IMG/VR virus record: IMGVR_UViG_3300047557_004483
Location: 1 to 64,000 of that record
Source of the DNA: a virus
Taxonomy: Duplodnaviria > Heunggongvirae > Uroviricota > Caudoviricetes
DNA: 64,000 nucleotides
Direction: 5' to 3' (one strand)
Shown: piece after piece, positions 3,835 through 51,286 of the stretch
Position numbering within the stretch: position 1 is the stretch's first letter
How the letters are laid out: every line of letters begins with the position of its first letter
The notes under the pieces: generated by a model
Databases searched by the model: none
Seen by the model: the letters and a program-made list of their open reading frames with translations, nothing else
Told to the model about the DNA's origin: nothing
Position numbers and translations under genes: made by a program

Positions 3835-4102
3835 AAATTATTTTTTGTTATATCATAAATACATTGTATCTTTGCTTTGTCTGAATATAAGTAGGACGGG
3901 CTGGAGCGAACCTCTTGGAGCTGAATCAGGGGCAGGTTGCTTAATAATATTATTAAGGTCAAGTTTTCTGCTCGAAAAACTTGACCTTAATATGTGGATA
4001 ACTTTATTTGGCAATATGGGAAATATTTCGTATCTTTGTAGGTTATTCCCCCCTATAAAAAAAAGTTTTTGCCATGTCAGAAAATAGTCGTATCTTTGTG
4101 GT

Positions 4103-4973: not shown

Positions 4974-5697
4974 GTCATAATGGTATTACGGAACATATAA
5001 AAATAAATAATTATCCACACTGACATTGTGTCTGACGCTATTAAAAAAGGGGATGTGGATAACTTTTTATACGGAAAAATTTGGAATTGTCAGAATGTCA
5101 GGGGATGCGTTGAGATGGGGATAATCCCCTCGACACATTTTCCCCCACTTTCTCCCACCACTGATTCCCACTTTTTACCACCGATATTGTGTTATAGATA
5201 GTGTCAGGACCACTTTTTCCCCTCTGCAGATATCAGGAGGACCATATTTTTACTATATCTATTTCCCAGATAAAAAAGGATAATATAGTGTAGTAGCGGG
5301 GGAGTGAACGAAGTGAACCTAAGATAGTATAAAATACCCCTTCAACGACCGAAGGGATAGGTTTTAGATGACCCCTCGTATGGACCAAACGAGTCCCCTT
5401 CATAGTGGACAACTCATATGGTGGGAATATGTGGGAAGAGTATAATTTTGTCATTAGAACCACAAAGTGGTACCTTACACAAAAAATTACTCTTAAAGAA
5501 CTATATGGTTTACTCCTTATGATTATATCTGATTACATATAATTTAAACCGAAGGTATGTTTTTATATGTAATTGCATATAATCATCTAAACAAACCATT
5601 ATACCACCATCTCATTATGTCCTGTCATTAAATGGGGGACGAACTATATGGTGGGGGAGTTGTAAAGGATTACTCGACAACTTATATATTTATTATC

Positions 5698-7089: not shown

Positions 7090-7206
7090 TATAATTATGT
7101 TTCTACAAAAATAAAGATTATTAAAATATAAATCAATATCTAGCTAGTAAAATTTTTTTGTGGTATCGGAATTTATCGTAAATTTGTATTTCTAAATGAA
7201 ACTACC

Positions 7207-23674: not shown

Positions 23675-23696
23675 TTGTGAATACAAAGATACGACC
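23675..23696 (-). promoter_or_regulatory. phage promoter class, copy a: (coding strand) GTCGTATCTTTGTATTCACAAA with Bacteroidetes -7 element TATCTTTG
   Basis: Identical 22-mer at 24325-24346; related copies at 4088-4102, 15923-15940 and 56375-56394. Confidence 0.55.
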
Positions 23697-23713
23697 TTTT
23701 TCTCATTCCGCCA

Positions 23714-23748
23714 AATAAAAAATCCCTCAATTTGAGGGACCTTTTTTC
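23714..23748. terminator. bidirectional terminator hairpin TCCCTCAA-T-TTGAGGGA flanked by A-run and T-run
   Basis: Palindrome with AAATAAAAAA on the 5' side and CCTTTTTTCC on the 3' side. Confidence 0.55.
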
Positions 23749-24324: not shown

Positions 24325-24346
24325 TTTGTGAATACAAAGATACGAC
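24325..24346 (-). promoter_or_regulatory. phage promoter class, copy b: GTCGTATCTTTGTATTCACAAA
   Basis: 22/22 identity with copy a. Confidence 0.55.
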
Positions 24347-24453
24347 TTTCTATATTGTCAGCCAAAACTTTTTTTTGTATTGATTTTCAGTTAGTTATGT
24401 TTTCTACTGAGGGGAAAACTGTAGATTTTTAGTCAATTGTTGTATTTATTGGA

Positions 24454-28107: not shown

Positions 28108-28171
28108 TTTATGTAATTTTGAAACACAAAGTTACTTAAAATAATCCAAATCACAAATATTTATAAAAACC

Positions 28172-32168: not shown

Positions 32169-32577
32169 TTGATTTATTTACTCCTATTGGGAGATGGTTT
32201 AGGTCATCTTTAGAAACCTCTATTAAATCAACACTACCGCTATGTAAACATCTTAAATCTAATAATAAGTAACTATCCAACGAATTCAACTTTTGTTCAA
32301 ACCCTTCATTTGTTACACTTCTTCCGTAGCCAACTTCCTTAGAAGAGGCAAAACTTACCTGAGTTGTAATTGAACGAACCTCAACTCTTTTTCCATCTTT
32401 ATCCTTCACATCAAATGGTGAATTTTCATTTTGTCTTTCTCCCTCGTGCCAAAATTCACCTACTCTACCCATAATTCTTCCATCATCACAAAATTTACGA
32501 GCTTCATATTCATTCTTGAATCCGAACCCTTTAGCAATTGCTTTAAAATCAAGTTTTCTACTACCAATTTGTTTCAT
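32128..32577 (-). CDS. hypothetical protein immediately upstream of, and overlapping, the methyltransferase
   Basis: 41-nt overlap with the MTase gene; no recognisable motif. Confidence 0.45.
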   Translation of the reverse strand: MKQIGSRKLDFKAIAKGFGFKNEYEARKFCDDGRIMGRVGEFWHEGERQNENSPFDVKDKDGKRVEVRSITTQVSFASSKEVGYGRSVTNEGFEQKLNSLDSYLLLDLRCLHSGSVDLIEVSKDDLNHLPIGVNKSIAAKKFYEIYDSI

Positions 32578-32649
32578 TAGAAAATGATAATAAAATTTTT
32601 GACTACAACCAAATAAAAAACCCCATTTGTAGAAACAAAAGGGGTCAAT

Positions 32650-33600
32650 TAGTTAAAAAAACTTTGAGAATACAAGTTCTATTTGAGAATCTTTAGAAGG
32701 ATTATGGTTTCCCTCCGTTTCCACTTCCTTTTGAGAAGTAATCCTCAGTGACGATTAATTAGGTTAATCAAACCTTGAGTTGTCAGATACTCTCTTGATA
32801 CTTGCTACTCCTCGATGATGCCTCACCAATACTTCCTTGCGAGAATAGAGAACTTTTTCAAAAATCGTGTCGGGTTTGGGACCCTTCACGGCCGTGAACT
32901 TCTCACGACTATGTAGTCACCTTTCACTGACAACTGACGGACACTTTTCCGTTTGTAATTATTATTGTTAATAACATTTAACAAATGAATTGGTTTGTGG
33001 ATTTGGAAAGTAGCGGTCCGTCAACCTGCTTCCCCATCTTTTGAACGAGGAAATACTGAACTACTCTCTGAGACATCCCTGCCTCCATACTTCAAGTTTA
33101 CTTCATAACTCATGCCTTGGTAGGCTAAGGTTAAGGAGAACAACAGCACCACCTGTACGAACTCATACCTTTCGGTTTTAAGTCAACTCTGATATTGAAT
33201 CACGCAATTGTATAGTTGGATGACCATACTTCTTGCAGGAGTTCTACGGGTTATTCTTATCGGTGTTCCCACCTCAACCAAACGACCCACATCGCTTGGT
33301 CATCATTCCATTTCGCCTACAGTGTCACCCTCAGCTACTCAGGGACAATGATATCCCGCTTGTCTACTCAAGCTCAACAGAGGACACCCCTATCGAGCCG
33401 CAACCTACTTCAACCGAGGTAGGTCACTTTATACTGCTTTCACAGTTTATTTTATGGACTATAGACCGCCCAATATCTTGAATCAAAGAACTATCAAGTT
33501 TGAAGGAAAAAGGTATTTTTACGACCTGAAACCTTTCAGGAACCTTTACAACCCGTTTCCTTCAATTGTTCTACAAAACTAAGAAGGGTTTTTGATACTT
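32650..33600 (-). ncRNA. ORF-free, GC-elevated region adjacent to the tRNA; candidate structured non-coding RNA(s)
   Basis: About 1 kb with no ORF above 82 aa and visibly higher GC than the flanks. Contains palindromes TTCACGGCCGTGAA and CCTGAAAGGTTTCAGG. Confidence 0.3.
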
Positions 33601-33626
33601 CCAAATTTTATTAGAACTTTTTTTTG

Positions 33627-33698
33627 TTGCGTGAGTAAGAATCGAACTTACGACCTAAAGGTTATGAGCCTTCCGAGCTACCGCTGCTCTATCACGCG
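33627..33698 (-). tRNA. tRNA with CAT anticodon (Met/fMet, or Ile2 if lysidinylated)
   Basis: Manual fold: acceptor stem 2-7/66-71, D-stem GAGC/GCTC, anticodon stem GAAGG/CCTTT, loop CTCATAA, T-arm GTAAG-TTCGATT-CTTAC. A C1·A72 mismatch and an A11:U24 pair are initiator-like. No CCA is encoded. Confidence 0.8.
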
Positions 33699-34005
33699 AT
33701 GTTAAGTTAAATTCTACCCATTCCCCGTCGTCACCATCCAAGTCATGCTCTGGTTGTACATGGGTAGAATCAATATATTAAAGAACTTTATTCGATTAAA
33801 AAGTCCCACAAATCTACGATACTTTTCTCAAACTACCAAATTCGTGGGACTAAGGGGGGAGAGATGTTTGACCATCTCATTTGTTTCACAAAGTTAAGAA
33901 GAATTTCTCAATTCGTCAAATTTTTTCTTGTGAAACTTTTTTTGTGGGGTGTTCACCTTTTTACAGGTGTGGATATATAAATATCACATTAATTTGTAAA
34001 GTCAA

Positions 34006-34428
34006 TTATTTTCCCAAAATAATTTGAAGTAATTTGTATAAATGTGTTCCTGTCGAAAGTTCGTCCATTTGTTCTGCAGTAAAATATTTACATTCAGAAT
34101 GTTCTTCACCATCCGAAGCATTTTCCAAATCAGGATTTATTTCTTGGTCGGTGTTCAGAACGTATGTGTACATTCTCCCCTTAACTTTTTTACCGTCTCT
34201 AGTATGTCTTGGTAGAATACCTGTGAAAGTTAATTCTTTATCAGAAATATCCAAATTAGTTTCCTCAAAGAATTCTCGCTTAGCACCTTCAAGAGTATCT
34301 TCCTCTTTTTCTAATTTGCCTGCTGGTATAGACCACATACCAGGGTATGAGCCTTTACTATTTCTCTTACATAGTAAACATTTCTCCTTATGTTTTACTA
34401 TTATTCCTACATATGTTTGTTGTTCCAT
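34006..34428 (-). CDS. NUDIX hydrolase
   Basis: Nudix box GKLEKEEDTLEGAKREFFEETNL (Gx5Ex7REUxEExGU). Confidence 0.8.
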   Translation of the reverse strand: MEQQTYVGIIVKHKEKCLLCKRNSKGSYPGMWSIPAGKLEKEEDTLEGAKREFFEETNLDISDKELTFTGILPRHTRDGKKVKGRMYTYVLNTDQEINPDLENASDGEEHSECKYFTAEQMDELSTGTHLYKLLQIILGK

Positions 34429-34443
34429 CGTATTTATATATAT

Positions 34444-34791
34444 ATGAAAGTAAAAATAAATGAAAATATCTTCAAGGTCAAAACTTTAATTGATGAAAAT
34501 TCACAAACCCTTGGAATGCAGAATAAAAGTTTTGATAATACTTTCGATGGGTTGCTTTTTCTGATGGGTGGAAAAGAACAATGTTTTTGGATGAAAGACT
34601 GTATTATACCCTTGGATATAATAATGATTAAAAATAACGTTATAGTTAATATTCACCACGACTGTCCTCCATGTAAAGGTGATGACTGTCCTTCTTACTG
34701 TGGTAAAGGTAATATTGTTTTAGAACTTGAGGGTGGTACTTGTGAAGAGGTAGGTATTGAACCAGGTGATTCAATAGAATATATTTTCTAG
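34444..34791 (+). CDS. DUF192-family protein
   Basis: LGMQNKSF..DGLLFLMGG..FWMKDCIIPLDIIMI..IVLELEGG fits the DUF192/COG1430 signature. Start moved to the ATG at 34444. Confidence 0.55.
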   Translation: MKVKINENIFKVKTLIDENSQTLGMQNKSFDNTFDGLLFLMGGKEQCFWMKDCIIPLDIIMIKNNVIVNIHHDCPPCKGDDCPSYCGKGNIVLELEGGTCEEVGIEPGDSIEYIF

Positions 34792-35345
34792 TTTGACTTC
34801 CAAACTTTTTCTTCTACACCAATAACAAATCCAACGTATCTTGAAAGAACAAATAGATAGTCACTTAATCTATTCAGGTAAATTAAAATTTCGTTAGGAA
34901 CTGATTCCAAAACACAAAGTCTTTCTGCTCTTCTACAGACAGTTCTACATACGTGAGCAGTAGAAACATATATGTGACCACCAGGTAGTATAAAGTTTTT
35001 CAATTCAGGAAGAACATTATCCATTTTGTCAATCCAATTTTCTAAAGATTTCACATCTTCTGAATCAACTGATGATAATTCGAAACCTAACTTAGCATTT
35101 GGGTCTTTAGAAACTACAGAACCTATTTTGAATAGGTTATTTTGAATGATATTCAATTGCAGTTGTTGTTCCATAAATTTAGACTTATCTGAAAATAAAT
35201 GGTCAGAGAGTAACCCAATAAATGAGTTCAATTCGTCTATGGTTCCGTATGCTTCTATTCTTAAATTGTTTTTTGGGACTTTTGTTCCACCTAATAAAGA
35301 AGTATACCCTTTGTCTCCTGTCTTTGTGTATACTTTTTTACTCAT
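34788..35345 (-). CDS. PduO-type ATP:cob(I)alamin adenosyltransferase
   Basis: MSKKVYTKTGDKGYTSLLGGTKVPKNNLRIEAYGTIDELNS is the hallmark PduO-type N-terminus. Confidence 0.85.
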   Translation of the reverse strand: MSKKVYTKTGDKGYTSLLGGTKVPKNNLRIEAYGTIDELNSFIGLLSDHLFSDKSKFMEQQLQLNIIQNNLFKIGSVVSKDPNAKLGFELSSVDSEDVKSLENWIDKMDNVLPELKNFILPGGHIYVSTAHVCRTVCRRAERLCVLESVPNEILIYLNRLSDYLFVLSRYVGFVIGVEEKVWKSN

Positions 35346-43872: not shown

Positions 43873-44907
43873 ATGTCAACTTGGAAAGATTATATTGAAG
43901 AATTCAACTCAGGAGATACAGACTTTTTAGGAAACTTTGGAGATGATATTGGTCTGTTCGTAGATTTAATAACTCAGAAAGGATTACTTAAATACTTGAA
44001 CGTTAATGCAAGTATGGAACCTGAAGTTGAGAATAAAGTTGTGTTGGCCTTTTATGAACATCACATGCCAAGTTATATAGAATTTTTACAAGAGAATTTG
44101 AGTGATGTAGAATTTGAAAATGGAGTGTTTTATTTTGTCGGTGACCCTTCAGATTTATCTACTCTTTTTGATGAAGGTAGAAATACCTTGCAGAAAAAAA
44201 CTGTAGAAAAAATTTTGAGTGGTGAAGGTTTAGACTTTGAATTTTTTGACTACACAACAGACAACGTTTATTCCGACGTTGTTGAAGAATTGAATATTGT
44301 AAATTTGCAATCCTTATATGAAGCCGTTCTTTACTTTTCCAAAGACGTTCAAATAGAACCAAGTACAGAACTTTTAGAATTGATTGCTGAAGAACAAGGT
44401 CACCCTGATTTTGTAATCATAGACAAAAACAATGTTGAAAGAATTGTCGATGACAGAGAAACTTTCGAATCACTTCTTAATGATGAATTATCTGATTTGA
44501 AGGGTAATCTCATAAACCTTCATCATTGGGCTTACAATTCAGCATATGAAGAAGAAGTTTACGAGGAAGTTTGGAATCAGCTTGATAAGTTTTTTGTCAC
44601 TGACCAAAAGAAATGGGTTTCAGTACCAATGTATACAGGACCTGCTGGTTCACAAAAGATTGCAAGTACTATAGAAAGAATGAAATTACCAATAAGAAAT
44701 TTACCCGAAATAATAAATGATTATCTAAGATGGAATGTGGAAGCTACATATCCAGAATCAGTTAGGTATTATGGTAACTACTCAGCAATATTGACATGGG
44801 TTCTCGACGAAAACCGTGATTATTCAAAGGTATATCCCCCTGATTTTCCTGATAGTTCTAAAGTTGATAAAAACATCAACGAAATGTTCAACGATTATAT
44901 ATACTAA
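43873..44907 (+). CDS. hypothetical protein
   Basis: Clean ORF converging on the fibre genes. Confidence 0.55.
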
Positions 44908-46991
44908 CCATTAAGTTTGTCTTCTATCTTTTTTAACTTATCCTCTACCTGAGTCAATAATCTATATTGTTCTTTAATTGCTTGAGTGCAAATTGCAACA
45001 ATCTCAGAGTATTTTACTTTATATCCATTTTTTTCGTCACCATATACAACCTGTGGTAAAACCTCTTGAAGTTCTTGTGCAATGAAACCTATATCATCAT
45101 CGTCTTTCTTGTGAATATGATATTTTTCTGGGTTCTTCCACTTAAATCTAACACCCCTCAATTTTTGGATTATACTAACAGCATCCTCTATTACTTTGAT
45201 ATTTTTCTTCATCCTTGAATCAGACGGTGGTCCGATTGCACCTGTTCTACCTGTCTGTCCAATATTACCTTGAGCACCTTGAGCTCCTTGTGGACCAGGT
45301 CCTCCACTTTGTCCTTGAGCTCCTTGGGCACCTGTTGCTCCTTGTGCACCTTGAGGACCCGCGGGATTACCCGCAAGGTTATTACCTTGGTCACCAAAAT
45401 TTCCTTGAGCACCCTGAGTACCTGGTGGGCCAGGAGTTGGTTGACCTTGAGCACCTTGAAATCCTTGACCACCAACAGGTCCTTGAGCACCTTGAGCACC
45501 GGGGGGACCTGTATTCCCTTGTGGTCCAGGTGCTCCTATAGGACCTGGTGCACCTGGCGGACTAAGTCCTGGTGCTCCTTGAGCCCCTTGAGCACCTTTC
45601 GAACCCTGACTTCCTGCGACTCCAGGAGTTCCTTGTGCACCTTGTGGTCCTTGTGGTCCGAGAGCTCCAGGATTACCTGTAGGTCCTTGAGCACCTTGTG
45701 CTCCTTGCCCTCCTTGAGCTCCTTGAGGTCCCTGAGCTCCTTGAGCTCCCTGAGCACCCTGAGCACCCTGAGGTCCTAAAGCACCTTGTGCACCTTGACC
45801 ACCCCGTGGGCCTTGAGGACCCGCAGTCAAAGATTGAGCTCCTTGAGCACCTTGACCTCCTTGAGCACCAACAGCTCCTTGTGCTCCCTGCGCTCCCTGA
45901 GCTCCCTGTCCTCCTTGAGCACCTTGAGCGCCTTGACCTCCTTGAGCACCTTGACCTCCTTGAGCACCTTGGCCTCCTTGAGCACCTTGACCTCCTTGAG
46001 GACCAACAGCTCCCTGCGCTCCTTGTATTCCTTGAGCACCTTGACCACCTTGAGCTCCTTGAGCACCTTGACCTCCTTGAGCACCTTGTATTCCTTGAGC
46101 ACCTTGACCTCCTTGAGCGCCTTGAGCACCTTGACCTCCTTGAGCACCTTGAGCACCTTGACCTCCCTGAGCACCTTGAGCACCCTGTCCTCCTTGAGCA
46201 CCCTGTCCTCCTTGAGCACCCTGTCCTCCCTGTGCTCCAATGTTTGCCCCTGGGGCACCTGTATTTCCTTGAGCACCTTGAGCTCCTTGAGCACCTTGAG
46301 CTCCTGTTGCTCCTTGAGCACCTTGAGCACCCTGTCCTCCTTGAGCACCCTGTCCTCCTTGGGCACCTTGTCCTCCTTGGGCACCAACGTTACCCACAGC
46401 ACCCTGAGCACCTTGACCTCCCTGAGCACCTTGAGCACCCTGTCCTCCTTGAGCACCCTGTCCTCCTTGAGCACCCTGTCCTCCTTGAGCACCCTGTCCT
46501 CCTTGAGCACCTTGAGCTCCTGTTGCTCCTTGAGCACCTTGTCCTCCTTGAGCACCTTGTCCTCCTTGAGCACCAACGTTACCCGCAACACCCTGAGCAC
46601 CTTGACCTCCCTGAGCACCTTGAGCACCTTGTGCACCTTGAGCACCTTGACCTCCCTGAGCACCTTGAGCACCTTGTGCTCCTTGGGGCCCTTGTGTACC
46701 TGAAGAACCTTTTGCACCTTGAGCTCCTTGGGGTCCTTGTGGTTGTCTGTTACCCTGCCATGCCGTCGTATTAATCAAAGTTCCAGCATCATTAATAAGA
46801 GTATTGGTTAATCGTAAATCTGCATTTGTAACTCTGAAATTAGGATAAGTATTATCCAAGGACAGATAAGTAGTAACCCCTCTTCTAAATTGTAAACTAG
46901 CTGAGGTTACAACCAAATCAGTTTGGGTCGTTGCAGAGTCATAAAAGGAAATCGTCCCCGTACCAGGCGTTATCTTAATATCTTCAGGCAA
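44904..46991 (-). CDS. collagen-like (GAQGGQ triplet) tail-fibre/host-attachment protein with C-terminal Peptidase_S74 intramolecular-chaperone domain
   Basis: About 450 aa of Gly-X-Y repeats. C-terminus [46 protein letters not shown] matches the endosialidase/tail-spike CIMCD Ser-Lys dyad region. Confidence 0.8.
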
Positions 46992-49161
46992 TCAATTTTG
47001 TTTTTAAATATTTTATTTTTTCATAAATAGAATTTATCCTTTTTTGTTGTTCTTGAATTGAACCGATACAAAGAGCAACAATTAAACCATATTCCAATCT
47101 TTTATATCCATCGTCCTCCGTCCACACAACTTGTGGTAATACCATTTCTACCTCCTGAGCAATATATCCAACAGAATCTTTTTCATAATAGTGTTCTTGA
47201 GCTGGGTTGAGATAGTTTTGAACTTTATCATTTTTTTCATCCCAAGTAAAGTAAACACTTTGAAGTTTCAAAATTGTATCAATACTGTTTTTCAAAGTCT
47301 GAACTTTTGACTTCAATCTTCTATCTGAAGTAGGTCCAGTTGGTCCTTGCGGTCCTTGAGAACCTTGAACCCCTTGAGCACCTTGAGCTCCCTGTGGTCC
47401 CTGTGGACCAGCACCTGCAGTTGCAGGTGCACCAACACTACCTTGAGCTCCTTGTGCACCTTGAGCCCCTTGCGGGGCACTTAACCCTTGGGTTCCTTGA
47501 GCACCTTGAGCACCCTGAGGTCCTCGAGGTCCAGTTGGAGAGGCACCCTGAGCACCTTGTGCACCCTGAACCGTACCTTGCGGTCCAGCAGCTCCCGAGT
47601 TACCTGTCACACCTTGAGCTCCTTGTGGACCTTGTGGACCTTGGGCACCTTGAACACCTTGAACACCTTGTGGTCCCTGAGCACCTTGCCCACCTTGGGC
47701 ACCTTGGGCACCTTGGGCACCTTGTGTAGTATTTGTAGTTCCTGGTGCGCCAGGATTACCGACCACAGCACTTGCACTTCCTTGGGCTCCTTGAGGTCCT
47801 TTCGCACCTTGCGCTCCTGTGTTAGCACCTGACGCACCTGTGTTACCTGTCCCTCCAGGGACACCTTGAGCTCCGGTCGCACCCACGGGTCCTTGAAGTC
47901 CTTGAGCTCCTTGGTTTCCTTGGAATCCTTGTGGTCCTTGTGGTCCAGGTGCTCCAGGCGTTGTGTTGGCAGCACCTTGAGCACCTTGTCCTCCTTGCGC
48001 CCCTTGAGCACCCTGAGCACCTGTATTTGCACCCTGAGCTCCTTGAGCACCTGTCGCTCCTTGCACCCCTTGAGCACCCTGAGCACCTGTATTTGCACCC
48101 TGAGCTCCTTGAGCACCTTGAGCTCCTTGTTGTCCAACTGCGCCGGTATTTAGACCCTGAGCTCCCTGAGCGCCTGTTGCTCCTTGTATCCCTAATGCAC
48201 CCTGAGCACCTGTATTTGCCCCTTGAGCACCTTGTGCACCTTGTCCTCCCTGAGCACCTTGTGCACCTTGTCCACCCTGAGCTCCTGTATTCGCACCTTG
48301 AGCACCTTGTGCACCTTGTGCACCTTGTGCACCTTGTACACCTTGTGCACCTGTATTTACACCTTGAGCTCCTTGAGCCCCTGTTGCTCCTTGAGCTCCT
48401 TGTCCACCCTGAGCACCTGTATTTGCCCCTTGAGCACCTTGTGCACCTTGTCCTCCCTGAGCGCCTTGTGCTCCCTGAGCACCTGTATTTGCTCCCTGAG
48501 CTCCCTGAGCACCTTGTCCTCCCTGAGTGCCTTGTGCTCCCTGAGCACCTGTATTTGCTCCCTGAGCACCTTGAGCTCCTTGAGCACCTTGAGCTCCTTG
48601 AGCACCTTGAGCTCCTGTGTTTGCTCCCTGAGCACCTTGAGCTCCCTGAGCACCTTGTCCTCCCTGAGCACCTTGAGCACCTGTATTTGCTCCCTGAGCA
48701 CCTTGTCCTCCCTGAGCACCTTGTCCTCCCTGAGCACCTTGAGCTCCTGTGTTTGCTCCCTGAGCACCTTGTGCTCCTTGCACACCAATACTTCCTTGAG
48801 CACCTTGGGCTCCCTGCACACCAATACTTCCTTGAGCACCTTGAGGTCCTTGTGACCCCTGAGCACCTTGAGCTCCTTGTCCTCCTTGGAACCCAATAAT
48901 ATTTGTTGTTGGTCCTACCCAAATGGCAGAACTATTAACAAATAAAGTATTTCCAACATACAATCCACCTGAATTTAGGCTAGCCCCTGATGATAATATA
49001 TTTTGTGGCCCTATTTGAAATCCCGTGGAAACTGTTGAAGATGAGAGTTGTAAAAACAAATTTTCAACATTCAACTGTAACTTGTTTGTACCATCATCGA
49101 ATATGATGAATGGTTTCAGAACTGAAGCATTACCTTGAGGATATATTATTATATTAGCCAT
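46984..49161 (-). CDS. collagen-like fibre protein with C-terminal S74 chaperone domain (paralog 2)
   Basis: GAQG(A/G)QG repeats with recurrent GANTGAQG interruptions. C-terminus [47 protein letters not shown]. Confidence 0.8.
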
Positions 49162-51286
49162 TTATTTTACTTTCTAATTCTTTTACTTCGATAAGAAGTT
49201 TTTCTATTTCTCTTTGATGCTCTTTTATCGCTTCAACCACAACCGCGTTCAATTTGGTGTATTCCACGTAATAATATCCAGACTTATTGACACCAACGGC
49301 CTCAGGGAAATATTTCTTAAGGTCTTGGGCTATCAATCCGATAGACTGTAGTTTACCTACCTGAGAAAGATAATCATATTTGTTAGGGTCTATTTTATCA
49401 TTCCATTCAAATTGAATTACTTTCAGTTTATTAATACTCTCTAACACATTTTCAAGGTTAGATACTTTCTTTTTCAATCTTTTATCTGAGAAACCTGGTG
49501 GACCTGGGAAACCAGGGTCCCCTTTAGCACCTTGAGCCCCTTGAGCACCCGTATTTCCTGTCGGTCCTCCACTTGCAGGACCTTGAGCTCCTTGTGCACC
49601 TTGAGCTCCGGTGTCCCCTTGAGCACCAAATTTTGCACCTGTAGCACCTTGAGCACCTTGTGCACCTTGAAACCCTGTTGGTCCTTGAGGTCCGAGAGTT
49701 CCTGGAGCACCTTGAGCCCCATTGGGTCCGAATGCACCTGGTCCTCCTTGAAAACCTATATTGCCTGGCGCACCTGGCCTTCCGACGAATCCTTGTGCTC
49801 CTTGTAGTCCTTGTATTCCTGTAGCACCTTGAGCCCCTTGAGCACCTTGACCTCCTTGGGCCCCTTGAGCACCTGTAGGACCATTAGGTCCAGGTGGACC
49901 TTGGACTCCTTGTGCTCCTGCAGCTCCCTGAGCACCTTGTGGACCTTGTTGTCCCTGAGCACCTTGCGGTCCCAAAGGGCCTTGAGCACCTTGTGGACCT
50001 GTGGGTCCTGCGGCTCCTTGGAAATTTTGAGGTCCTTTCGCACCTTGAGCACCTTGTGAACCTTGAGCACCTTGAATACCCGGAGGTCCAATAGGTCCTA
50101 TAGGTCCTTGAGCACCTTGAGCACCTTGAGCACCTTGAGCACCTTGTCCACCTTGAGCACCTTGTGGACCTTTGGAACCCTGAGCTCCCTGAGCTCCTTG
50201 TGCTCCCTGAGCTCCTTGTGCTCCTTGTGGACCTTTGGAACCCTGAGCTCCCTGAGCACCTTGTGGCCCTTGAGCTCCTTGTGGTCCTGATGGTCCTTTG
50301 GCCCCTTGAGCCCCTTGAGCTCCTTGACCTCCTTGAGCTCCTTGTGGACCCCGTGGACCTTGAGCACCCACAGAACCCTGTGCACCTGTACTTCCCACAG
50401 CACCTTGAGCTCCTTGAGGTCCCCGTGGACCTTGAGCACCTTGACCACCTTGAGCACCCTGCCCTCCTTGAGCTCCTTGTGGACCTCTTGGTCCTTGAGC
50501 ACCTTGTCCTCCTTGAGCTCCTTGCGGACCTTGAGCTCCTTGAGGTCCCCGTGGACCTTGAGCACCTTGAGCACCTTGGCCACCTTGAGCACCTTGAGCT
50601 CCTTGTGGACCTCTTGGTCCTTGAGCACCTTGTCCACCTTGAGCTCCTTGTCCACCTTGGGCTCCTTGAGGTCCGGCAAAACCTATATTCCCTTGAGCAC
50701 CTTGCCCACCTTGAGCACCTTGAGCACCTTGTGGCCCTTTCGAACCCTGTGCACCCTGAGCTCCCTGAGCACCCTGACCTCCTTGAGCACCTTGTGGCCC
50801 TTTCGAACCCTGTGCACCCTGAGCTCCCTGAGCACCCTGACCTCCTTGAGCACCTTGTGGCCCTTTCGAACCCTGTGCACCTTGAGCACCTTGTCCTCCC
50901 TGAGCACCTTGAGCGCCTTGTCCTCCCTGAGCACCTTGAGCACCGATATTTCCTATAAATCCCACATTTCCTGGCGCACCTTGAGCCCCTTGTCCTCCCG
51001 CAATATTTGTGGTTGGTCCGACCCAATTCAAAGTATTATTTAATATCTGTATTCCACCAACACTCATGAAATTTCTAATATTCAAAGTGTATCCTGAAAT
51101 ATTAGTGTTCGAAGGATTAACTGATAATATATTACTTTGAGTTGCAGAACTAAAAGTCACTACAGCACCCGATAAAACTTTCAATGAAATGGGTACATCA
51201 CCGACATTATTTATAAAGTCGATAAAAGGAATTCTGTCAGGTTGTTGAACCAACCGACTCGGAACTATTTTAATGTTTAGACCCAT
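49154..51286 (-). CDS. collagen-like fibre protein with C-terminal S74 chaperone domain (paralog 3)
   Basis: [19 protein letters not shown] triplets. C-terminus [48 protein letters not shown]. Confidence 0.8.

Follow-up and report, generated by a model that had tools for sequence, protein, structure and literature searches.

The RNA island of the window

The window analyzed here is a stretch of 64,000 nucleotides (nt) of tailed-phage DNA (IMG/VR record IMGVR_UViG_3300047557_004483, positions 1 to 64,000). It contains a region of about 1 kb, at 32580-33626, which encodes no apparent protein and which we identify below as the gene of a GOLLD RNA. The longest open reading frame (ORF) within this region, in any frame, comprises 82 amino acids (aa) (33233-33481, plus strand), and the gene-free stretch lies between a 149-aa ORF, which ends at 32577, and a Nudix hydrolase gene, which starts at 34006. 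The guanine-plus-cytosine (GC) content of the RNA core at 32661-33480 is 0.424, and 0.451 in its 5' half, as compared to 0.346 for the whole window and about 0.32 for the flanks. Segments of 820 nt that are as GC-rich as the core make up 7.9% of the window, and nearly all of them lie inside collagen-like tail-fibre genes. A sequence-only reading of this DNA had already described the region as free of ORFs, elevated in GC and located directly 3' of a transfer RNA, tRNA(CAT), on the minus strand, and had proposed a large structured phage RNA at this place; the ORF and GC counts, the placement of the tRNA, the family match and the covarying structure reported here agree with that description. The features of the RNA island are collected in Table 1.

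Table 1. Features of the RNA island and the genes next to it, in window positions.
Feature	Position	Strand	Remarks
Promoter-like site a, TTTG-N20-TAACTTTG	33889-33920	-	Bacteroidota -33/-7 type; most upstream site of the RNA island; sequence match
Promoter-like site b, TTTG-N20-TAGATTTG	33809-33840	-	Upstream of boxA-like motif, small hairpin element and tRNA
boxA-like motif GTTCTTTAATA	33776-33786	-	After promoter-like site b; exact match to GYTCTTTAANA
Small conserved hairpin element, ~62 nt	33710-33771	-	Between boxA-like motif and tRNA; fold -25.6 kcal/mol, z -2.45
tRNA-Met(CAT)	33626-33698	-	ARAGORN; Rfam tRNA 63.5 bits, 1:72 pair flagged non-canonical
Promoter-like site c, TTTG-N20-TAGTTTTG	33574-33605	-	In the tRNA-GOLLD spacer; putative own promoter of GOLLD
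Leader hairpin, 66 nt, two symmetric GUAAA-containing internal loops	33500-33565	-	Inverted repeat I1; fold -25.9 kcal/mol, z -2.94
boxA-like motif GTTCTTTGA	33483-33491	-	GOLLD leader, ~10 nt before core; 83 nt after -7 element
GOLLD 5' domain, env-38 type	33069-33480	-	Aligns with env-38 residues 1 to ~420; outside Rfam model
GOLLD 3' domain	32661-33068	-	RF02032 full-length match
A-rich variable linker	~32950-33005	-	Inside 3' domain; poorly conserved, alignment A2 columns ~570-660
Terminator-like hairpin CCCCUUUUGU-UUCU-ACAAAUGGGG, then UUUUUUAUUU	32611-32644	-	Fold -17.3 kcal/mol, z -2.77
Nudix hydrolase gene	34006-34428	-	
DUF192 gene	34390-34791	+	

The gene-free stretch encodes a GOLLD RNA

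The whole window was scanned with Rfam at gathering thresholds, and two matches only were obtained, the tRNA and GOLLD. The GOLLD match (RF02032; 33068-32661, minus strand) reached 316.5 bits compared to a gathering score of 150, with an E-value of 9e-90, and spans model positions 1-416 of 416. RF02032 models only the conserved 3' half of GOLLD. A complete homologue, env-38 from a marine metagenome, comprises 833 nt with a 5' region (1-420) and a 3' region (421-833) and is located downstream of a Met-tRNA; cryo-electron microscopy revealed an RNA-only nanocage of 14 subunits with D7 symmetry, in which the two regions are separate domains (PDB 9MEE; Kretsch et al. 2025, PMC12286853). The env-38 sequence was taken from Supplementary Table 4 of that paper (816 nt as recovered; published 833 nt) and aligned end to end, with 64% identity, to the minus strand of the window between 33471 and about 32661. 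The gene-free stretch thus encodes a GOLLD RNA of about 810 nt on the minus strand, from about 33480 to 32661, with a less conserved 5' domain joined via a variable linker to the 3' domain. It is an added member of a known family, which was described in 2009 and whose structure was solved in 2025.

GOLLD RNAs are generally encoded by phages or prophages, are often found near tRNA islands, and have no known function (PMC12286853). The window provides such a setting with the adjacent tRNA-Met, three collagen-like tail-fibre genes, a phage-type DNA polymerase and a DNA methylase; further genes encode the Nudix hydrolase, a DUF192 protein and a cobalamin adenosyltransferase.

The window RNA and env-38 have in common their two domains, their length of about 0.8 kb, the position downstream of a Met-tRNA, an A-rich interdomain linker, a GAAA-capped hairpin in the 3' domain, and GCAA/GGCA loops at aligned positions. 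They differ by a sequence divergence of about 36% and by one 5'-domain hairpin, which lacks about 17 nt in the window, where CCGAAAGG replaces AAAATGGGGAAACCCCTTT and the GAAA loop is kept; the shorter hairpin was also seen in about half of the homologues. Furthermore, the published env-38 construct does not contain the leader found in the window, and the env-38 cage has been observed, whereas the window RNA is known from its sequence. The GOLLD RNAs of Streptococcus agalactiae (12-mer, PDB 9L0R), Lactobacillales and Mycobacterium belong to the same Rfam family and share the conserved 3' domain and the context of phages and tRNA arrays, but they lack the env-38-type helices P9, P11a-c and P21b and differ in copy number (2026 review). 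Unlike these RNAs, the window RNA follows the env-38 architecture. ROOL RNA is likewise a large phage or prophage RNA found near tRNA islands which forms an RNA-only nanocage and has no known function; its sequence and fold are unrelated, and Rfam gave no ROOL match in the island.

Both domains keep a conserved secondary structure

A blastn search of the locus against deposited phage genomes identified two huge-phage assemblies with GOLLD, LR745206 (Rfam 287 bits, tRNA-Met directly upstream) and LR756502 (Rfam 275 bits), together with scattered tRNA-Met matches; megablast with 20 kb revealed no close relatives among these genomes. Relatives were gathered via an 18-nt motif of the 5' domain, which yielded more than 119 IMG/VR contigs, and a full-length RNA profile matched more than 100 of these contigs end to end. 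The closest homologue (locus L083) is 94% identical over the GOLLD RNA.

The structure alignment comprised the window RNA and 41 homologues with mutual identity below 90% (42 sequences). RNAalifold predicted 187 pairs, 140 of them with compensatory double changes. The 5' domain taken by itself gave 20 helices with 114 pairs, which were 97.1% paired; shuffling of columns gave 78.3% (none of 500 shuffles reached the observed value), and sliding the partners by 1-3 columns gave 38-45%. Changes on both sides occurred at 81 pairs of this domain, as compared to 34-43 in the slid controls. Both GOLLD domains keep a secondary structure which is conserved through many compensatory changes. Covariation among homologues and an Rfam scan were among the checks named in the sequence-only reading, and both support a structured RNA.

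The three palindromes quoted in that reading do exist, at positions which differ by 1-6 nt from those given. TTCACGGCCGTGAA was located at 32885-32898, not 32879-32892, and in the GOLLD consensus it forms no hairpin; it is the junction of adjacent helices, where the 3' strand of the first meets the 5' strand of the second. CCTGAAAGGTTTCAGG is found at 33525-33540 when the minus strand is read, not at 33521-33536; as a 6-bp stem with a 4-nt loop it falls short of a perfect palindrome, and it constitutes the tip of the leader hairpin outside the GOLLD core. The pair CCCCATTTGT..ACAAAAGGGG at 32621-32644 contains one U-U mismatch and is identical with the terminator-like hairpin. This hairpin on the minus strand was missed by a simple consensus terminator scan because of the internal mismatch and was recovered by folding. 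Alignments obtained by blastn with five relatives (L083, L020, L082, L119 and L090) extend through it. With its U-run (32644-32611), the hairpin separates the stretch from the ORF starting at 32577, which argues against the earlier suggestion of a long structured 5' leader.

Promoter-like sites at the RNA island

The sigma-A promoter consensus of Bacteroidota, known from promoter studies in Bacteroides, consists of TTTG at -33 and TAnnTTTG at -7. The corresponding pattern TTTG-N17-21-TANNTTTG was found 14 times in the window, whereas 4.15 occurrences were expected, and none of 100 shuffles reached 14. Three of the 14 matches cluster at the RNA island on the minus strand (Table 1, sites a to c). 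Matches directly upstream of ORFs on the same strand are located at 4068-4098, 7157-7186, 23684-23715, 24335-24366 and 28127-28157. The host of the phage is most likely a member of the Bacteroidota.

The region of site b is conserved in relatives (alignment A4); in the closest one (L083) it is 84% identical over 292 nt. At site c, the TTTG at -33 and the TAnnTTTG at -7 are invariant in 13 aligned leaders. Furthermore, a promoter-like site precedes the boxA-like motif in 54 of 84 GOLLD upstream regions. These matches suggest that GOLLD has its own promoter of the Bacteroidota type at 33605-33574, with a predicted transcription start near 33570. Between the tRNA and this putative promoter no terminator was found, only a run of eight A residues (A8).

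The GOLLD leader resembles leaders of ribosomal RNA operons

The spacer of about 150 nt that separates tRNA and GOLLD is conserved in relatives and contains a promoter match, a hairpin and a boxA-like motif. The internal loops of the leader hairpin read U(U/A)GUAAAGGUU and UCGUAAA(A/G)NUU. The hairpin is kept in 12 relatives: 99.6% of the cells were paired in the 13 sequences, as compared to 58-71% with slid partners, with changes on both sides at only 4 pairs. Other GOLLD leaders contain simpler hairpins of the form GGGG-UUGUAAAGAUU-CCCC (L036, L108). In its position before the boxA-like motif the leader hairpin resembles boxB of ribosomal RNA (rRNA) leaders, and it could be a protein-binding site.

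BoxA is an antitermination signal for Nus factors. Its consensus as derived from Escherichia coli is GYTCTTTAANA (PMC5725501). The GOLLD leader motif GTTCTTTGA is invariant in the 13 leaders of alignment A3. In a larger set of unique GOLLD upstream regions, G[CT]TCTTT[AGT]A was present in 84 of 91, and five of the remaining seven contained variants differing by one base. The distances of the motif from the GOLLD core cluster at about 20, 54 or 85 nt.

The supplements of the CRISPR boxA paper gave no clear boxA sequence for Bacteroidota. The leader motif was derived from 107 leaders of Bacteroidota 16S rRNA genes, with DNA further upstream at these loci, on both strands, as background. The box motif occurred 1.33 times per kb in these leaders and 0.068 times per kb in the background, corresponding to a 19-fold difference. 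Among the 8-mers common to most of the 16S leaders were GTTCTTTG, TTCTTTGA and TCTTTGAA, and the promoter element TACCTTTG was among the most shared ones. In rRNA leaders as well as in GOLLD leaders, AAAA before the box and A after it are preferred, which is not the case for background occurrences. The GOLLD motif is identical to this 16S-leader motif, which is itself called boxA by resemblance and which comes from Bacteroidota at large.

We also counted the composite of a promoter-like site followed within at most 110 nt by the box. In 114 viral loci (1.01 Mb), 127 such composites were located on the GOLLD strand, as compared to 3 on the opposite strand. In the window the composite is confined to the RNA island, and none of the 11 promoter-like sites elsewhere is followed by the box; the consensus after a promoter is thus found ahead of what would be a non-coding transcript. 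Apparently, the island has in common with the boxA leaders of rRNA operons and CRISPR arrays that a promoter, a hairpin and GYTCTTT(A/G)A stand in this order where a long untranslated transcript begins, and that the unit includes a tRNA. The GOLLD leader looks as if it had been copied from rRNA operons of the host. In the literature searched, which did not cover the original description of 2009, no paper links GOLLD with boxA, NusB, antitermination or Rho. A pairing of leader and trailer in the style of rRNA operons, of GUUCUUUGA with a 3' UCAAAG, was rejected as a further common trait; it is possible in the window and unconserved in the homologues.

An initiator-like tRNA and a small conserved element upstream of GOLLD

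The bacterial initiator tRNA(fMet) is distinguished by a C1xA72 mismatch, a purine11:pyrimidine24 pair and three G:C pairs at 29-31:39-41. The tRNA-Met of the window has the C1xA72 mismatch, A73 as discriminator and A11:U24; its anticodon stem consists of A29:U41 followed by two G:C pairs (AU/GC/GC), hence two of the three canonical G:C pairs. Among 105 GOLLD loci with enough upstream sequence, 60 carry a tRNA-Met(CAT) within 400 nt upstream on the same strand, whereas 40 have no tRNA within this distance. Nearly all GOLLD-linked tRNAs of the relatives show C1xA72 (a few U1:A72), A73 and A11:U24, and their anticodon stems mostly contain two, not three, G:C pairs. Judged by these elements, the GOLLD-linked tRNA-Met appears to be initiator-like, and an initiator-like phage tRNA tied to GOLLD may bear on the function of this RNA. 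In one relative (L069), GOLLD is surrounded by a transfer-messenger RNA (tmRNA) gene, which scores 97.8 bits with Rfam (L069:5439-5812), and by about 20 tRNAs in an array (L069:1376-3916); this locus exemplifies the setting in tRNA islands known from the literature.

Just upstream of the tRNA-Met, a small hairpin element follows a promoter-like site and a boxA-like motif of its own. Its sequence reads GAUUCUACCC...GUACAACCAG.GCAUGAC.UGGAU.GGUGAC...GGGG...GGGUAGAAUU. The element recurs in 13 viral relatives, where its core hardly varies (alignment A4; L083:3868-4002 and 12 further loci), and its outer stem covaries from GAUUCUA/UAGAAUU to GAUUACA/UGUAAUC. No Rfam match was obtained for it at E-values up to 1. 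It may represent a small phage RNA which has not been described so far. Relatives with longer spacers of 250-400 nt between tRNA-Met and GOLLD (L012, L013, L037, L042, L069, L079, L084, L093, L104 and others) contain extra small conserved modules, each behind a TTTG...TAnnTTTG site; examples are GGUUGAAGCC...AAUAAAACCGAUUGAGUGAC...AAAGCCGGA and ...UAUAGGUGAUGAAAGAUACUCGG.... An Rfam scan of six such loci found only GOLLD, tRNAs and one tmRNA. These modules suggest arrays of small phage RNAs.

Proposed expression of the GOLLD gene

Taken as one claim, the locus is best explained as the GOLLD RNA gene of a tailed phage, expressed as outlined here, and we hold this explanation with high confidence. 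GOLLD would be transcribed from its own host-type promoter (33605-33574), starting near 33570, with a leader of about 90 nt which would contain the conserved hairpin and a boxA of the rRNA-operon type, GUUCUUUGA (33491-33483). As no terminator intervenes, upstream promoters could also read through the tRNA into GOLLD. The island would thereby resemble an rRNA operon, with tandem promoters, boxA and a tRNA followed by a large structured RNA. Recruited by the boxA, NusB/NusE and other Nus factors of the host would modify the transcription complex, which would keep Rho from terminating the long untranslated transcript and aid its folding during synthesis. Such a protection of long untranslated transcripts by boxA-bound Nus factors has been described for rRNA and CRISPR arrays, Bacteroidetes included (PMC7665894). 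Transcription would end at the hairpin and U-run at 32644-32611. As judged from the published structures of homologues, the RNA would then fold into two domains and self-assemble without protein into a closed dihedral nanocage.

More specifically, we tentatively propose that the GOLLD gene mimics a host rRNA operon throughout a large clade of phages of Bacteroidota, with tandem host-type promoters, a boxA leader, which in some loci follows the conserved hairpin with GUAAA internal loops, and an initiator-like tRNA, and borrows Nus antitermination to transcribe and fold the nanocage RNA; we consider this about as likely as not. The published ideas on the role of GOLLD include the encapsulation of tRNAs, ribosomes or other molecules, and a prophage GOLLD was reported to be expressed as a stable RNA, with rising levels in lytic growth (literature cited in PMC12286853). 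A review of 2026 still considers the function speculative. The most likely role of the cage would be a manipulation of translation or of the tRNA supply by the phage in lytic growth, because of the linkage to tRNA and the literature reports of an expression increase at the time of lysis and of a ribosome pull-down. We conjecture that the initiator-like tRNA and the rRNA-like leader also point to translation.

Several points weigh against this scheme. The last step of the mechanism, the role of the cage, is conjecture. The host was assigned to Bacteroidota by an indirect route. GOLLD homologues form 10-, 12- or 14-mers according to the helices present (2026 review), and one hairpin differs from env-38; hence, the copy number of the window assembly cannot be predicted. 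Taken on its own, the 9-mer GTTCTTTRA shows no enrichment in the window (5 occurrences, 3.8 expected), so that the motif derives its weight from its conservation, its position and its identity with the rRNA-leader motif; the A-rich flanks of the box could partly reflect intergenic composition. Finally, unlike the leaders of rRNA operons and CRISPR arrays, the leader of the window belongs to a phage nanocage RNA, and its boxA function, like the promoter, the transcription start and the terminator, is read from sequence alone.

Alternative explanations

The missing enrichment of the 9-mer in the window also favors a different view of GTTCTTTRA, namely that the conserved motif is not a boxA for Nus factors and serves as a processing site, as a place where a phage protein binds, or as a piece of the GOLLD structure. 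Its quantised distances from the core, given above, would fit a processing signal as well. On the other hand, the same sequence with the same flanks marks the 16S leaders of Bacteroidota, one of the two copies in the island equals the boxA consensus exactly, and the motif follows promoters of non-coding units only. A structural role is opposed by the env-38 construct, which begins downstream of the motif and forms the cage, so that the motif is not needed for the fold, and by the 3' end, where a CUUUGA/UCAAAG pairing is possible but the 3' partner is unconserved. We consider this view unlikely, while it deserves to be kept in mind when the Nus-factor boxA, which we prefer, is discussed.

A second alternative concerns the promoter. 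GOLLD might have none of its own and constitute the 3' part of a tRNA-Met-GOLLD precursor, from which it would be released by processing of the RNase P/RNase Z type; the TTTG...TAnnTTTG of the spacer would then be functionless. Both genes are located on the same strand with a gap of only about 150 nt and with nothing but the A8 run in between, they are linked in 60 of 105 loci, and two more promoter-like sites precede the tRNA. Against this, the -33 and -7 elements of the spacer are invariant in 13 leaders whose other positions vary, and promoter-like sites stand before the box in the majority of GOLLD leaders (54 of 84). Moreover, the 40 loci without a nearby tRNA indicate that GOLLD is often transcribed alone. 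The two routes are mutually compatible, and a precursor as the sole source of GOLLD appears improbable to us; an own promoter remains our preferred explanation.

Two readings of the stretch as a whole can be dismissed. A tmRNA, 6S RNA, RNase P RNA or group I intron remnant, as considered in the sequence-only reading, would fit by size and GC content, and the relative L069 does possess a tmRNA, though as a separate gene beside its GOLLD; this reading was rejected, since a permissive Rfam scan of 32560-34030 (E-values up to 1) yielded GOLLD and the tRNA and none of these families, and ARAGORN detected no tmRNA anywhere in the window. A protein gene that has decayed or been frameshifted, with the palindromes as chance or regulatory sites, has in its favor only the missing long ORF and is equally implausible: the RNA family match is full-length, the substitutions in the 42 aligned sequences keep base pairs and not codons, and more than 100 homologues are of similar length, none with an ORF. 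The pseudogene was rejected on the basis of this RNA-type covariation, and we retain the GOLLD RNA gene as the identity of the stretch.

Significance of the GOLLD leader and its context

With this assignment, a region that would falsely be called unknown becomes a GOLLD RNA in the same genomic setting as env-38, whose structure is solved. As GOLLD has no known function, well-delimited phage examples with their context are useful, and the window adds a context in which Nudix, DUF192 and the initiator-like tRNA-Met keep their synteny in dozens of relatives. A new element may be the promoter and boxA leader in the style of rRNA operons, which appears to be common to roughly a hundred phage loci. 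If confirmed, promoter and boxA leader would explain how an abundant untranslated RNA of 800 nt is made without Rho termination, and with the mimicry of an rRNA operon a cis-regulatory logic would be described for GOLLD for the first time. The boxA leader would then also provide a handle to switch GOLLD off and to find its function, with a specific site to mutate.

Neighboring genes and further observations

The Nudix and DUF192 ORFs are located on opposite strands and overlap by about 39 nt. More than 30 viral contigs have them in synteny with the tRNA-Met/GOLLD module, with amino acid identities of 46-64% for Nudix and 64-77% for DUF192; from this synteny the window belongs to a broad clade of uncultured phages which keeps the module. 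A Nudix enzyme encoded next to the gene of an abundant RNA could act on RNA 5' ends. Near the island, the minus strand at 34788-35345 encodes a cobalamin adenosyltransferase of the PduO type (Pfam PF01923, E-value 1e-55), an auxiliary metabolic gene. The three tail-fibre genes are consecutive (44904-51286, minus strand), encode about 700 aa each and contain collagen-like repeats; their GC content is about 0.58, as compared to 0.35 for the genome, and many spurious overlapping ORFs occur there in all frames.

A second ORF-poor gap of about 650 nt (4974-5631) is located between divergent genes and had no Rfam match at gathering thresholds. It contains several repeats of the AAAGTGG type (e.g., GGGGAAAAAGTGGTCC and GGTAAAAAGTGGGAATCAGTGGTGGGAGAAAGTGGGGG) and one GTTCTTTAA on the minus strand, and looks like an iteron-containing origin or a control region.

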